A program made the position numbers and the translations under genes. The notes under the pieces are model-generated. The model did no database searches, was not told the DNA's origin, and saw nothing but the letters and a program-made list of their open reading frames with translations. Of a DNA stretch of 59,199 nt, positions 46,714 through 51,980 are shown piece by piece. Positions within the stretch are counted from its first letter, which is position 1. The number at the start of each line of letters is the position of its first letter. Source of the stretch: Candidatus Neomarinimicrobium atlanticum (GTDB taxonomy: Bacteria > Fidelibacterota > Marinisomatia > Marinisomatales > Marinisomataceae); NCBI GenBank assembly GCA_000402815.1, contig AQSA01000011.1:1-59199 (forward strand), written 5' to 3'.

Positions 46714-47934
46714 TTGTCAAATAGAGTTGTTATTACTGGAGAAGGTAGTATTTCTCCTCTAGGATTATCATCCAAAGAACTTTGGAATAACCTTATTCAT
46801 GGTAAATCAGGCATCAAGCTAATTCAAAATTTTGATACTGAACAATTTAATGTTAAGATTGCTGGAGAGATTACAGATTTTGATCCTTTAGTGTTTTTTG
46901 ACCATAAACAATCTAGGAAGTTAGACCGTTATACCATGTTTGCTATGATAGCTGCAGATCAAGCTATTAAAAGTTCTGGAATTGAATCTTCAAATATAGG
47001 TGTTATTTTAGGTACTGGCGTAGGCGGTATGCATACCCTAGAAGAAGAACAAACCAAACTATTAGATAAAGGTCAAAGAGGTGTATCTCCTCATTTTATT
47101 CCAAAAATGATTCCAAATATTGCAGGTGGTCAAATTGCTATTAAACATGGATTTAATGGACCAAATTTTTCTCTTTCTACTGCTTGCTCTTCTGCTAGCG
47201 ATGCTATAGGAATGGCATATAGATTAATTCAATCTAATCAAATACATGCAATGGTATGTGGAGGATCAGAGGGAGGAATAACTCCTTTAACATTATCTGG
47301 ATTTTCAAATATGAAAGCATTGTCAAAAAATAATGAAAATCCACAAAGCGCATCTAAGCCTTTTGATAAAAATAGAGATGGATTTATTATGTCTGAAGGA
47401 TCAGCAATGTTGGTTTTAGAATCATTAGATAGTGCCAAAAAAAGAGGTGCTAATATTTTAGCAGAGATAATAGGTTATGGAATTACAAATGATGCTTATC
47501 ATATTACTCAACCTCACAATGAAAGCAAGGGCGCTACAAGTGCTATCGATTTAGCTTTACGAGATGGAAAAATCAATAAAGATGAAGTAAACTACATTAA
47601 TGCACATGGAACATCGACATATTACAATGATATGTTAGAAACTCAAGCGATTAAACAAGTCTTTGGTGATAATGCAAAAAACTTACCAGTGAGCTCTACG
47701 AAGTCAATGACAGGTCATATGCTAGGCGCTACAGGTGCGATTGAAGCAATTAGCTGTATATATGCTATAAATAATGGGATAATCCCTCCTACTATCAATT
47801 ATGAGACTCCTGACCCTGAATGTGATTTAAATTATGTTCCAAATAAGAGCATTGAATTGGATTTAAATGTCACTATTAGTAATTCTTTTGGATTTGGTGG
47901 ACATAATTCTGTTTTAGCTATTAAGCAATTTTAA
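46714..47934 (+). CDS. fabF: 3-oxoacyl-ACP synthase II
   Basis: STACSS, EGSAML, INAHGTST, KSMTGH, NSFGFGGHN; TTG start. Confidence 0.95.
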   Translation: MSNRVVITGEGSISPLGLSSKELWNNLIHGKSGIKLIQNFDTEQFNVKIAGEITDFDPLVFFDHKQSRKLDRYTMFAMIAADQAIKSSGIESSNIGVILGTGVGGMHTLEEEQTKLLDKGQRGVSPHFIPKMIPNIAGGQIAIKHGFNGPNFSLSTACSSASDAIGMAYRLIQSNQIHAMVCGGSEGGITPLTLSGFSNMKALSKNNENPQSASKPFDKNRDGFIMSEGSAMLVLESLDSAKKRGANILAEIIGYGITNDAYHITQPHNESKGATSAIDLALRDGKINKDEVNYINAHGTSTYYNDMLETQAIKQVFGDNAKNLPVSSTKSMTGHMLGATGAIEAISCIYAINNGIIPPTINYETPDPECDLNYVPNKSIELDLNVTISNSFGFGGHNSVLAIKQF

Positions 47935-48890
47935 GCTAATTTTTTTTTAAGAATGTCAATTGATTCAACGGCGTCAATATCAACATTATTTAAGTGTCCG
48001 CACCAGTAACTGAACCAATCCAGGTAATTTAATAAGTAGAATAATCCGCTAAGGTCATTTTTAAGTTTTGATGGAATTTGAATATGGTGGTTTGAAGAAG
48101 TTTTATGTTTTAATATTTCATTAGTAATATTCATCCTCTTAACATTTTGAGGCCAAGTAATATCAATCCAAATCAAAGAAAAGAAGCTTTTATCAATTAA
48201 TTTATTTTCCCACCCTATAATGTCATTATGATTCATCTCTGGTAAAGTAACATTATAAGATAACATTTTACTATTCTCATTCAATTGACACTTTAAGCGA
48301 TATCCAATAGAAGATAAATCTTCCTCCGTAATAATAACTGGAAATGTAGAATGAGTTTTCTTAGCTAAAGCAAATACTTCAGAACTCTCTAACGAAAATT
48401 TATTAGAGTATTCTTGAAGAAGTTCTATATTAAGCAATTCAAGTAATTCATCTTCATCTAAAAGTTTTATTAATACTGCAAGAGTATATCCAAGAATAGA
48501 TCTTGGAGGGTATCCTTGAGGAAGAATGTGAAAATCATGATTATCTTTCTTTAAAGATTCTAAGAGCTCTCCCCCAGATGTTATTCCAAAGATATTTTTT
48601 GTAAAACTTGATGCATGCCTATAATACGAAAGAGCTTCTTCTGTATTTCCAGAATAAGAAGAGATAATCAATAAGGTATGTTCATCTATTATAGCATTTG
48701 GAAAATAATTTCTTTCAACTATGATTTCAAGGTGAGGAGAAATATCTTTCATTATCGATCCAGCAATAGCTGACCCTCCCATGCCCATAATTACAATCCT
48801 ATGAATCTTACCTAAATCTAATGATAGATCTTTAGTATCGTTAATTGCATCAGCTACTTGAGCTGGAAAATTTTTTATTTCATTAAACAT
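47931..48890 (-). CDS. Bifunctional phosphoglucose/phosphomannose isomerase (SIS fold)
   Basis: GMGGSAIAG, SSYSGNTEE, QLNENSK, PEMNHN. Confidence 0.88.
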   Translation of the reverse strand: MFNEIKNFPAQVADAINDTKDLSLDLGKIHRIVIMGMGGSAIAGSIMKDISPHLEIIVERNYFPNAIIDEHTLLIISSYSGNTEEALSYYRHASSFTKNIFGITSGGELLESLKKDNHDFHILPQGYPPRSILGYTLAVLIKLLDEDELLELLNIELLQEYSNKFSLESSEVFALAKKTHSTFPVIITEEDLSSIGYRLKCQLNENSKMLSYNVTLPEMNHNDIIGWENKLIDKSFFSLIWIDITWPQNVKRMNITNEILKHKTSSNHHIQIPSKLKNDLSGLFYLLNYLDWFSYWCGHLNNVDIDAVESIDILKKKLA

Positions 48891-48891
48891 G

Positions 48892-49851
48892 TTATTTCTC
48901 TCTTTTTAAAATCATATTTAGCAATGATATCATGTTATCTTGAACTTCATTAGGAAGAGATTTTATTATATCCTTACATTTATTATCAAAATTTAGTAAC
49001 AATTCCTTTGATTTTTCAATAATACCAGAATTTTTATAATATTCTTTCAGTAATTCCTTTTTTTCTACAATAGAACGGTTTTTTATTTCTTCTTGAAGCT
49101 TGTTCCAAGCGTCTTTATCTTGGTCCAACGCCATACTTGATAAAATTGTTTTTTTACTTCTTTCTATGTCAGAATTAGTTCCTTTTCCCATATTTTCTGA
49201 AGAAGTTGACATTTCAAGTATATCATCTTGCATTTGAAAAATTACTCCAAGATTTCTACCTATTTTTTTAAATTGAGGTTTAAACTGTAAATAATCATCA
49301 CTTATTAAACATGATATTTCAAAGCATAGCTCAAACAAAGAGCCTGTCTTTTTTTCACTCATTAAAATATATTCATCTACAGAAACATTTCTTGATTCAA
49401 ATTCCATATCATATGCTTGGCCTTCACATATCTCTAATATCACTTGGTTATATCTGATTAAAATTTCTAATGTATTCTTTTTAATTTTTCCAATAAAAAT
49501 TGGTCCAAGCGCCCCTAGGCCATCTCCAGATAGAACAGCATGGGCATTATCCCATTTTTTATGAATAGTAGCTACGTTATGCCTTAAATCATCTCCATCC
49601 ATTATATCATCATGTACTAATGTGAAATTATGTAACAATTCTACACCCATTGCACCGTTGATAGTATCTTTTGGATTATTATTGAACACATCTCCTAAGT
49701 ACTGCACTATAAGTGGCCTTAATCTCTTTCCTTCAGAATTTATGATGTATTTAATAGGATCATAAAGATATGATGGACCTTCCAATTCTTGCAGTTTTGC
49801 TAGTTCTTTTAGAAAAAGATTTTTGTAATCTTGATTGCTTTTAACTCTCAT
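48892..49851 (-). CDS. Short-chain polyprenyl diphosphate synthase (FPP/GGPP type)
   Basis: GKRLRP, FTLVHDDIMD (Phe five residues before the first Asp), GQAYD, KTG, QMQDD. Confidence 0.9.
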   Translation of the reverse strand: MRVKSNQDYKNLFLKELAKLQELEGPSYLYDPIKYIINSEGKRLRPLIVQYLGDVFNNNPKDTINGAMGVELLHNFTLVHDDIMDGDDLRHNVATIHKKWDNAHAVLSGDGLGALGPIFIGKIKKNTLEILIRYNQVILEICEGQAYDMEFESRNVSVDEYILMSEKKTGSLFELCFEISCLISDDYLQFKPQFKKIGRNLGVIFQMQDDILEMSTSSENMGKGTNSDIERSKKTILSSMALDQDKDAWNKLQEEIKNRSIVEKKELLKEYYKNSGIIEKSKELLLNFDNKCKDIIKSLPNEVQDNMISLLNMILKREK

Positions 49852-50581
49852 TTAATTCTTCTAATATTTTTTGTGTGTCCTTGTAGCCATCTTCAGCTGA
49901 GGGCTCTCCGGCTTGATATACAGAACAATTTGGCATTTCATTCATAATCTTAGCTAATGGATAATCATTACCACCCTCCATTGTTCTATCTCCTATAAAA
50001 ATATACTCTTCATCTGAATAGAATTTTTTAACCTCACTTAATACTTGAGACTTATTCATACCTCTAGGTGTAATATCAATAGATATTTGTCCACCTATTA
50101 CAGCATCGAGGTTATCCCACTTAGTTATAATTTGAATAGCAATATCTGCTCTTTCTTGGCTTTTTACATCATATTCAAAATAATCCAATCTTTCCTCTAA
50201 AGAACAATCTCTGCCTACAATACTAAAGTTTAACATTGAACCTCTATCTTCAATGTGATTGCCAGATCGTACTGGATACTTGCTTTTTTTTATTTCTTCT
50301 TTTAAAAAAGACAATAACTCTTCTGATGGTTTAAACTCATGATTATAGGATAATTGATTGTTTAACCACAATTGATTACCCCCACATGTAAATACTCCAT
50401 CTGAAAGGTCAAGAATATATTGAGGAACTTGTTCTTGAATTTTCTCTAGATTACTTCCACTAACAAGGAAAAAAATGTGTTCATTTGCCCATTTAGAAAA
50501 AAACTGTTCAAAATCAGGGGTCATTTCTCTTCTTGATGGAGTAAGCGTTCCATCCATATCAAAAATATAAATTTTTTTCAT
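49841..50581 (-). CDS. HAD-IIB phosphomannomutase, eukaryotic PMM2/Sec53 type
   Basis: FDMDGTLTPSR, VSGSN, RGSMLNFSIVGRDCSLEER, GGQISIDITP, FIGDRTMEGGNDYP. Confidence 0.85.
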   Translation of the reverse strand: MKKIYIFDMDGTLTPSRREMTPDFEQFFSKWANEHIFFLVSGSNLEKIQEQVPQYILDLSDGVFTCGGNQLWLNNQLSYNHEFKPSEELLSFLKEEIKKSKYPVRSGNHIEDRGSMLNFSIVGRDCSLEERLDYFEYDVKSQERADIAIQIITKWDNLDAVIGGQISIDITPRGMNKSQVLSEVKKFYSDEEYIFIGDRTMEGGNDYPLAKIMNEMPNCSVYQAGEPSAEDGYKDTQKILEELNES

Positions 50582-50596
50582 TTTTTAGCTCTATGA

Positions 50597-51958
50597 TTAA
50601 ATAGTTTTAAAATATCTTTTAGCCTCTTTTTTAATATGAGGCGATAAGTAAATTGCTGATATCATAGTAGGAAAAGCCATTAAAGCAAACATTGCATCTA
50701 CGATATTAACAGCTAAATCTAATGATAGCACAGAACCAAGAACAAGCGTTATAACGTAAAAAATTCTATAGTATACTTTTGAACCTGTACCAAACAAATA
50801 AGATGCACATTTACATCCATAGTAAGAATATCCAAACATAGTAGACAGTGCAAAAGTTGCTACTGAGAAAATAAGAATAAAGTCGCCAACTACTCCAAGA
50901 TGATTAGCAAAAGATTTCTGTGTTAAACTAACCCCAGAAAACTCTCCTGTCATCCAATCACCAGATAACAATATAACAATTCCTGTTATAGTACATACGA
51001 TGATTGTATCAATCACTGGTCCTATCATTGCTACAAGACCAGATCTAATTGGCTCATTATTTTTCGATGCTCCAATAGCCATCACTTCTGTACCCATGCC
51101 AGCTTCATTTGAAAATGCAGCTCTTCTAAAACCCTGGCTAATTACTACAGCCGTTCCTACGAAACCTCCAGCTACTGAACTTCCGTTAAAAGCACTGCTT
51201 ATAATTAAATTAAAAATTGATGGTACCAATTCAATATTTGTAAAAACTATAAATAATCCAGCAGACATATAAATCACCACCATAAACGGAACAATTCTAG
51301 AGGCAACATCAGCAATACGTTGAAGACCCCCAAATATTACTACCGATACAATTAATGCAATTATAATTCCTATAGTTAAGTCTAACGGAATTGATGAAGC
51401 AATATTTGGATTTGTTTTAATCAATTGATCTGATAGTATTTGAGTTAACTGATTTACCTGCAACAGAGATAAACATCCAACAAGTCCAGCAATACTAAAC
51501 CAATATGAAAGGAATTTAAATTTCTTACCCATACCTTGCTCAATAACATACATAGGACCGCCCTGCAATTCACCATCAGAATCATGACCTCTAAACATGA
51601 TCCCTAATGAGCAGGTAAAAAATTTAGTCGCCATTCCAACTATAGCGCTAATCCACATCCAAAATAATGCTCCAGGACCTCCTAGAGATATAGCAACAGC
51701 TACACCAGCAATATTTCCTATTCCTACGGTACTTGAAAGCGCTGTGGATAGGGCTTGAAAGTGCGAAATTTGACCATCATCGTTTGGATCGTCATACTTG
51801 CCTAAAAGTATGTCAAAGGCATGCTTAAAGTATCTAAATGGAGTTAATTTTGAATAAAATAGAAAAAATATACCTCCGCCAATAACTAGATTGGCTACTC
51901 CAAAGTTTCCCCAAAGGAAATTTGATAAATTTGCAAAAAAATTATTAATTAAATCCAT
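50597..51958 (-). CDS. Alanine/glycine:cation symporter (AGCS)
   Basis: STVGIGNIAGVA, GGPGALFWMW, GGPMY, RAAFSNEAGMG; start placed at MDLINN. Confidence 0.93.
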   Translation of the reverse strand: MDLINNFFANLSNFLWGNFGVANLVIGGGIFFLFYSKLTPFRYFKHAFDILLGKYDDPNDDGQISHFQALSTALSSTVGIGNIAGVAVAISLGGPGALFWMWISAIVGMATKFFTCSLGIMFRGHDSDGELQGGPMYVIEQGMGKKFKFLSYWFSIAGLVGCLSLLQVNQLTQILSDQLIKTNPNIASSIPLDLTIGIIIALIVSVVIFGGLQRIADVASRIVPFMVVIYMSAGLFIVFTNIELVPSIFNLIISSAFNGSSVAGGFVGTAVVISQGFRRAAFSNEAGMGTEVMAIGASKNNEPIRSGLVAMIGPVIDTIIVCTITGIVILLSGDWMTGEFSGVSLTQKSFANHLGVVGDFILIFSVATFALSTMFGYSYYGCKCASYLFGTGSKVYYRIFYVITLVLGSVLSLDLAVNIVDAMFALMAFPTMISAIYLSPHIKKEAKRYFKTI

Positions 51959-51980
51959 GATTAAGTAAGTTAACAATATA

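Follow-up and report, generated by a model that had tools for sequence, protein, structure and literature searches.

Contig AQSA01000011.1 of Candidatus Neomarinimicrobium atlanticum (NCBI GenBank assembly GCA_000402815.1; positions 1 to 59,199, the whole of which is called the window here) carries a gene for a small protein of the phosphomannomutase (PMM) family, P0001, in the operon slot that sister families of the same order give to an unrelated mutase. The arrangement of the genes supports an in-situ non-orthologous displacement of a 456-aa PgmG-like alpha-D-phosphohexomutase. Based on sequence comparisons and a predicted structure, we consider it likely on the whole that P0001 is a mutase of the PMM/phosphoglucomutase (PGM) type that displaced the PgmG-like enzyme in the ancestor of one genus of Marinimicrobia; its gene belongs to a phage-dominated clade. 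The genome that we analysed is 1.13 Mb in 45 contigs, is 96% complete and has 3.6% contamination, and most of the genomes with which it was compared are metagenome-assembled genomes (MAGs).

The gene lies in a run of four minus-strand genes with nearly no spacing, in which an AGCS symporter is followed by P0001, the prenyl synthase P0002 and the bifunctional phosphoglucose/phosphomannose isomerase (PGI/PMI) P0003. The initial annotation of this DNA had described a HAD gene, an overlapping prenyl synthase and a PGI/PMI one nucleotide further on, and this layout is exact to the coordinate. The order mutase, synthase, PGI/PMI is kept in every genome of the genus that we examined, and the gene order is identical in a single-contig genome of 969,550 bp. 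All 15 of the 15 sister-family loci have a 454-457-aa mutase, then the prenyl synthase and PGI/PMI, with fabF convergent beside them; the convergent fabF beside PGI/PMI, shared with the genus, is a mark of the conserved neighbourhood. The best model for the sister-family mutase (456 aa) is the PgmG phosphoglucomutase/phosphomannomutase, at 470 bits vs a cut-off of 600. Its gene overlaps that of the synthase by 11-32 nt (open reading frames as called) in the 14 of 15 loci where our script paired them, and the 11-nt overlap of the P0001 and P0002 genes is probably a case of translational coupling. We considered whether the new gene might have retained a chimeric 3' end from the displaced one and rejected this, since the old and new proteins have no C-terminal similarity.

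Genes matching PF02878, the family of the displaced enzyme, number two in 23 of the 24 sister-family genomes and one in the genus. The one that the genus has kept is the phosphoglucosamine mutase GlmM (TIGR03990), which corresponds in type to one member of the sister-family pair; the second member of that pair is found some 2.9 kb upstream of PGI/PMI and shares its strand. PF03332, the PMM family, is present in 30/35 other genomes of the genus (0.7-1.1 Mb), the five without a match being 67-84% complete, and was found in 0/24 genomes (1.8-3.2 Mb) that represent 15 further families of the order. Counted phylum-wide, matches occur in 30/34 genomes of the genus vs 1/348 elsewhere. Within the genus the HAD protein is 70-95% identical, the synthase 53-87% and the PGI/PMI 48-79%. 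Given that the HAD enzyme sits in the slot of a PGM/PMM, we infer that it took over that mutase's job, and this takeover of the slot is the strongest functional evidence short of an assay. A non-orthologous substitute for the ManB-type mutase of bacteria had been proposed in the initial annotation, and the occupation of the exact slot of the PgmG-like mutase bears this out.

The sole PF03332 match outside the genus in the phylum (G178:C57:131115-131672, 37% identical to P0001) is in a 2.4-Mb genome of another family, has a different gene context and looks like an independent acquisition. In one related genome (G012) the mutase gene appears truncated, which we attribute to an assembly indel artefact, the neighbouring synthase being broken as well. 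A single-cell genome, SCGC AAA160-B08, is among the related loci. In the sister loci that were annotated, murQ is found upstream of the displaced mutase in L016, L018 and L019, and anmK too in L016 and L019; both of these cell-wall recycling genes are missing from the genus locus.

Sequence and modelled structure support P0001 as a member of the PMM family, distinct from Cof-type HAD proteins. In a Pfam scan it scored 101.5 bits on PF03332 (cut-off 22.4), and all 80 relatives that were scanned match the same family. The closest solved proteins are PMM2, PMM1 and the PMMs of parasites and fungi (E 1e-29 to 1e-21), human and mouse PMM2 being the best (E 1e-29), a match well outside what chance would give; P0001 scores 107 bits with PMM2 vs 40.6 bits (E 2.6e-9) with the Lactococcus alpha-phosphoglucomutase (APGM) 4bnd. 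The cap and core motifs quoted in the initial annotation, RGSMLNFSIVGRDCSLEER, GGQISIDITP and GDRTMEGGNDY, are all present in the translation. In the core, D8/D10, K177 and D198/N205/D206 of P0001 align with D12/D14, K189 and D209/N216/D217 of human PMM2, as do the HAD motif residues T12 and S43 with their counterparts. In the cap, R17, R113, N118, R124, R131 and S167/D169 correspond to R21, R123, N128, R134, R141 and S179/D181, which we take, from the PMM1 and PMM2 structures, to be the binding residues for the sugar and for the second phosphate. Fourteen of the PMM2-aligned positions are invariant across the 80 relatives, in which the HAD motif residues D8, D10, T12, S43, K177, D198, N205 and D206 are invariant or nearly so.

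The AlphaFold2 model of P0001 (pLDDT 96.2, pTM 0.91) was compared with the PDB by Foldseek, and ranks 1-22 are all PMMs (E 1e-17 to 1e-21, TM-score up to 0.85). The Lactococcus enzyme is next, and after a drop of some eight orders of magnitude come trehalose-6-phosphate phosphatases and Cof-type HAD proteins (E 1e-8 to 1e-10). Among the NCBIfam models, the Cof-type TIGR00099 gives P0001 46.4 bits, below its cut-off of 137, and SPP and other HAD-IIB models are far below theirs. The family assignment made in the initial annotation therefore stands, and the nesting among Cof-type HAD proteins that it had named as the contrary outcome is not what the profiles and the structural ranking give. At NCBI, the bacterial copies bear just the label "HAD-IIB family hydrolase". 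These comparisons also bear on whether P0001 might be a hexose-bisphosphate or sugar-phosphate phosphatase, comparable to the glucose-1,6-bisphosphatase activity of mammalian PMM1 that is stimulated by inosine monophosphate, or to other HAD-IIB phosphatases. We think this very unlikely: the HAD-IIB fold is common to many phosphatases, as the matches to trehalose-6-phosphate phosphatases and Cof-type proteins illustrate, but the Cof and SPP scores are low and P0001 has retained every cap arginine with which PMM2 holds the second phosphate; and while no nucleotidyltransferase for a mutase product was seen in most genomes of the genus, the gene took the slot of a true mutase as the genome lost that mutase, and its relatives show linkage to manC, a setting that calls for a mutase.

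P0001 would most likely be a Mg2+-dependent HAD-type alpha-phosphohexose mutase, interconverting mannose-6-phosphate with mannose-1-phosphate and probably glucose-6-phosphate with glucose-1-phosphate too, through an aspartyl-phosphate at Asp8 and a hexose-1,6-bisphosphate intermediate that the cap arginines would hold in place. The ancestor of this streamlined genus would have exchanged its 456-aa PgmG-like mutase for it in the same operon slot, with GlmM retained. Together with PGI/PMI it would convert fructose-6-phosphate, by way of mannose-6-phosphate or glucose-6-phosphate, to a hexose-1-phosphate, and this route may feed envelope-glycan pathways that vary between strains.

The choice of mannose is suggested by gene linkage in other members of the clade of phage and prokaryote sequences to which P0001 belongs. 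In the Alphaproteobacteria, clade members adjoin manC and/or gmd. We observed manC / mutase / glycosyltransferase family 2 (GT2) / gmd in a Thermodesulfobacteriota MAG, mutase / manC in Melainabacteria, gmd and then manC / mutase in a Rickettsiaceae MAG, manC / mutase in four Hyphomicrobiales/Rhizobiaceae MAGs and one Paceibacterota genome, and a ManC-like gene adjoining the mutase in two Promethearchaeota. On TIGR01479 the linked ManC proteins reach 330-619 bits, the 330 bits of the Rickettsiaceae copy falling under the 373-bit cut-off, and the linked GDP-mannose 4,6-dehydratases score 555-597 bits on TIGR01472. Given that these clade members occupy the classical place of manB, the family would most likely act as a phosphomannomutase.

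In Lactococcus lactis, the HAD-type PgmH is the sole, essential PGM. P0001 might likewise be mainly an alpha-phosphoglucomutase that supplies glucose-1-phosphate for dTDP-rhamnose or UDP-glucose, with little or no role in mannose metabolism, and we judge this unlikely. The scores given above place P0001 much closer to the PMMs than to the L. lactis enzyme, and it falls outside the APGM-like clade, although characterised HAD-type PMMs are bifunctional PMM/PGM enzymes that convert glucose phosphates too (Plasmodium HAD5; PMC8808168) and the L. lactis HAD-type enzyme does serve as a bacterial PGM (title of PDB 4bnd). The best model for the displaced enzyme is itself a bifunctional PGM/PMM, and the downstream isomerase is the cell's only PGI; against this, the linkage of clade members in other lineages is to manC and gmd and not to genes for the use of glucose-1-phosphate. 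The genome carries the dTDP-rhamnose genes rmlA, rmlC and rmlB and we found no ManC in it, but rmlA occurs in just 6/36 genomes of the genus searched (this one included), and the genome also has gmd, a consumer of GDP-mannose. This gmd (421.9 bits vs a cut-off of 415) is in an O-antigen-like island on contig C18 (3617-15300), together with genes for a Gmd-like reductase, a DegT aminotransferase, GalE, a nucleotide-sugar dehydrogenase, GmhA-like and HddA-like proteins (GDP-heptose type), Wzx, Wzy and Wzz.

Several points weigh against our main reading. Searches with PF00483, PF12804 and TIGR01479 found no mannose-1-phosphate guanylyltransferase or GalU in the 96%-complete genome, nor in its near-closed relatives, including the single-contig 0.97-Mb genome. 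In most genomes of the genus, the single-contig one among them, PF00483 is represented solely by a 241-aa protein resembling the N-terminal part of GlmU, and the PF12804 matches are this same protein, IspDF and RmlA. With no guanylyltransferase or GalU found, the proposed mannose route lacks its last part, and no core consumer of the hexose-1-phosphate was seen in these searches. The initial annotation had drawn a route from fructose-6-phosphate through mannose-6-phosphate to mannose-1-phosphate; its PGI/PMI and PMM-family mutase are present, but manC was found neither in this genome nor in the near-closed relatives. The gmd gene occurs in only some genomes of the genus and is missing from 4/5 near-closed relatives, and rmlA is as rare as noted above. 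The adjacency to PGI/PMI is inherited from the displaced gene, so it is silent on the preferred sugar, and to our knowledge no enzyme of the phage/prokaryote PMM clade has been assayed. The missing consumer may be explained by an activating enzyme in poorly assembled glycan islands, by promiscuity of the GlmU-like protein, or by a conserved role of the mutase in something else.

A role of the last kind could be the conversion of D-glycero-D-manno-heptose 7-phosphate to the 1-phosphate, bypassing a kinase and a phosphatase, or of GlcNAc-6-phosphate to GlcNAc-1-phosphate, feeding a stand-alone GlmU-type uridylyltransferase. That no core consumer of hexose-1-phosphate was found is in keeping with such a role, as is GlmU being represented only by the 241-aa uridylyltransferase-like protein. 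The GmhA-like and HddA-like genes of the glycan island would suit the heptose variant, but the island is not known as core to the genus; the displaced mutase of sister families follows murQ and anmK, which yield GlcNAc-6-phosphate, but GlmM is retained. Given that the sugar-binding residues of P0001 match those of PMM2, we regard these substrates as highly improbable. The 241-aa GlmU-like protein (contig C9, 74431-75156) has no acetyltransferase domain, and the 157-aa open reading frame that follows its gene matches no NCBIfam model. This short form of GlmU occurs throughout the genus, and some sister families have it too.

A PMM/PGM remains our preferred reading of the enzyme, and the source of its gene can be considered separately. 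The best-scoring profile for P0001 is phrog_29277 ("unknown function"), at 199.9 bits, about twice the PF03332 score. Copies 41.5% identical to P0001, annotated as hypothetical proteins, are found in the cultured cyanomyophages P-TIM68, S-SSM7 and S-SSM6a. The P-TIM68 and S-SSM7 copies (AIR93462, L044:5974-6720, and SSSM7_237, L045:5992-6684) are PMM-family HAD enzymes. In a scan of IMG/VR, at least 552 confirmed viral contigs encode a relative of P0001. All 150 matches listed among the 50%-identity cluster representatives (138-274 bits) outscore any solved eukaryotic PMM (107 bits), and none of the 80 such representatives scanned with Pfam was eukaryote-grade on PF03332 (best E 2.4e-36). Cellular copies, about 40% identical, are scattered among alphaproteobacterial MAGs, Elusimicrobia, Melainabacteria, Flavobacteriales, Thermodesulfobacteriota and Promethearchaeota.

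We built a tree of 122 rows by an IQ-TREE quick search with SH-aLRT support, including 12 eukaryotic PMMs that were fetched via the eukaryote-like copy of a TM6 bacterium. It has three groups: the 12 eukaryotic PMMs with the TM6 copy (support 99), an APGM-like group from the Candidate Phyla Radiation (CPR) whose members match 4bnd best, and a clade of 95 phage and prokaryote rows (support 97), which contains P0001. The initial annotation had called the gene eukaryote/virus-type, and the eukaryote part of this label has to be dropped in its strict sense. A recent transfer from a eukaryote to the genus is ruled out by the same tree, which holds real eukaryotic PMMs. The copy of the TM6 (Dependentiae) bacterium (L081:3911-4732) is a genuine eukaryote-type PMM that groups with the eukaryotes and is probably a separate eukaryote-to-bacterium transfer. 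In the CPR loci L084, L086, L087, L088 and L094, a Lactococcus-APGM-like member is followed by a small protein, some 116 aa long, with a resemblance to ManC's cupin (PMI) end.

Within the phage/prokaryote clade the Marinimicrobia genus is monophyletic (support 99) and groups with a metagenomic sequence, P0126; together they are sister to five IMG/VR phage contigs and P0127 (support 99). These five contigs are fragments of 26-56 kb rated 15-26% complete, which gives phage genomes of about 170-220 kb, and their G+C content is about 30%, like that of the genome analysed. On the nearest contigs, the gene beside the mutase encodes a myophage-type primase, which shares 42% identity with the primase of Flavobacterium myophage immuto and 40% with its counterpart in Microcystis phage Mel-JY01. 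No terminase was found on the five contigs, which are fragments 15-26% complete. In two of them a gene for a RimK-type ATP-grasp ligase is located between the primase and the PMM-like gene (L101:4106-5008 and L102:4106-5008). Direct descent from T4-like cyanophages was rejected, as P-TIM68 and S-SSM7 are in another subclade.

The tree fits repeated exchange between viruses and cells, and the gene of the genus was probably acquired from a large marine myophage, to judge from its placement. The virus link suggested in the initial annotation is upheld in part, in that the labelled sequences nearest to P0001 come from phage contigs; a transfer from phage to cell is probable at most. We hold the full scenario tentatively, as something just short of an even call: a phage auxiliary metabolic gene (phrog_29277, PMM/PGM) would have been captured by the ancestor of the streamlined SAR406 genus and would have replaced the core 456-aa phosphohexomutase in the same slot by an unrelated 246-aa enzyme. 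The topology leaves room for capture by a phage from its host as well, since the nearest phage rows form a sister group of the genus clade instead of being paraphyletic around it. Under a cellular origin, phages of low-GC marine bacteria, perhaps of this genus, would have taken the gene from their hosts, and the genus would have got it from another bacterium. The similar G+C content of the five phage contigs agrees with this, as do the several cellular clades within the family, but phage rows outnumber cellular rows in the clade and lie on most of its deep branches, the gene is absent from the rest of the phylum apart from the single match mentioned above, and a constraint uniting every cellular row of the clade is rejected (delta lnL 204, p-AU 2e-61, for a group named after the tree had been seen). 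We find a cellular origin possible but doubtful. We found no relevant literature on a phage phosphomannomutase or on the P0001 gene in Marinimicrobia.

The coordinates of the locus are given in Table 1. The AGCS symporter gene lies 15 nt upstream of the mutase gene on the same strand and adjoins it in all genus loci; it is also found, further upstream, in some of the 15 sister-family loci. A single base separates the stop of P0002 from the ATG of P0003.

Table 1. Features of the mutase locus in the window
Feature	Coordinates	Strand	Evidence
fabF, convergent with PGI/PMI, gene ends overlap by 4 nt	46714..47934	+	TIGR03150 590.8 bits
Bifunctional PGI/PMI P0003, SIS type, 319 aa	47931..48890	-	TIGR02128, PF10432 110 bits
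Putative short-chain trans-isoprenyl diphosphate synthase P0002, 319 aa	48892..49851	-	PF00348 201 bits
Overlap of mutase gene stop and prenyl synthase gene start, 11 nt	49841..49851	-	Open reading frame coordinates and sequence
HAD-IIB phosphomannomutase/phosphoglucomutase-like gene P0001, 246 aa	49841..50581	-	PF03332, phrog_29277, PMM2 alignment, AlphaFold2 model
Sodium:alanine-family symporter (AGCS), first gene of co-directional run	50597..51976	-	PF01235 402 bits, TIGR00835 412 bits

P0002 has the marks of a short-chain enzyme in its sequence: the first aspartate-rich motif is DDIMD, with no insertion and with Phe at -5. Its best NCBIfam models are geranylgeranyl diphosphate (GGPP), IdsA and farnesyl diphosphate (FPP) synthases, all under their equivalog cut-offs. 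The second aspartate-rich motif is DDxxE rather than DDxxD, and is the same in all 25 genomes checked across the order. P0002 is the only PF00348 gene of the genome apart from a duplicate on a 1.5-kb contig; as its sole trans-prenyl synthase it stands without any long-chain (quinone side-chain) synthase that we could see. The duplicate, contig C45 (1567 bp), repeats part of the prenyl synthase and PGI/PMI locus and probably reflects strain heterogeneity or the contamination of the assembly. In all sister families a synthase of this type lay between the mutase and PGI/PMI before the displacement. P0002 is best read as a housekeeping FPP/GGPP synthase, presumably co-transcribed with the sugar-phosphate genes for general envelope synthesis. 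The initial annotation had taken it as a hint of lipid-linked mannosylation, and with the operon position ancestral and no other PF00348 gene we do not follow it there. Two GT2 genes resembling polyprenyl-phosphate-sugar synthases are found elsewhere in the genome (307 aa, ArnC/PgfS-like, and 237 aa, AglJ-like).

P0003 scores 215.5 bits on TIGR02128 vs a cut-off of 213.9, which is a narrow margin. No PF00342 PGI was found in the genome, in which P0003 is the only PGI. PGI/PMI was found in all 24 sister-family genomes searched and is thus ancestral to the order.

P0001 is itself a member of a known family. What is new is the displacement in place, the phage-dominated clade that lacks an assigned function, and the gap at the downstream enzyme. 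The displacement is an unusually clean non-orthologous one, in which the operon, the slot and the overlap stay the same while an enzyme of unrelated fold and half the size has moved in, and it is fixed in a genus heavily sampled by metagenomes (1,786 homologous 90%-identity clusters). If the phage scenario is true, a transfer from virus to host brought in a smaller analogue, which became fixed while the genome was being reduced, and the phrog_29277 family is a very common and so far unannotated phage gene that reroutes host hexose phosphates. The family gains a testable function, phosphomannomutase/phosphoglucomutase, and could be annotated accordingly. The gap is that these cells keep PGI/PMI and a hexose-phosphate mutase, yet no recognisable enzyme activating mannose-1-phosphate or glucose-1-phosphate was found in near-closed genomes.

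Among known systems, the eukaryotic PMM2, PMM1 and Sec53 (PF03332; PDB 2amy, 7o0c, 2fue, 8b5v) share with P0001 the HAD-IIB core-plus-cap fold (TM-score 0.73-0.85), the DxDxT, Ser, Lys and GDxxxxGGND motifs, the Arg, Asn, Ser and Asp residues of the cap and a similar length. Unlike them, P0001, which is about 30% identical, is in the phage-dominated clade (support 97) and not in the clade of eukaryotes and TM6 (99); the eukaryote-type copy of the TM6 bacterium has 295 bits to the Leishmania PMM, where P0001 has 107 bits to PMM2. The copies of phrog_29277 phages are in the same clade as P0001, in at least the 552 IMG/VR contigs and in the cyanophages mentioned above, whereas P0001 is chromosomal, is in a housekeeping operon and is fixed across the genus, and the cyanophage copies belong to another subclade.

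In L. lactis, PgmH serves in place of an alpha-D-phosphohexomutase, which would be a precedent for a displacement of this sort. PgmH (4bnd) is also a bacterial HAD-type mutase of the PMM family, but it is distant from P0001 (40.6 bits, 20% identity), and APGM-like sequences such as those of CPR bacteria (109 bits to 4bnd) make up a separate clade. The ManB/PgmG-type alpha-D-phosphohexomutases (PF02878) would catalyse the same reaction, and the PgmG-like gene of sister families has the same operon position. They are phosphoserine enzymes of four domains and 456 aa, in contrast to the aspartyl-phosphate HAD enzyme of 246 aa that we predict for P0001, with an unrelated fold and no sequence similarity.

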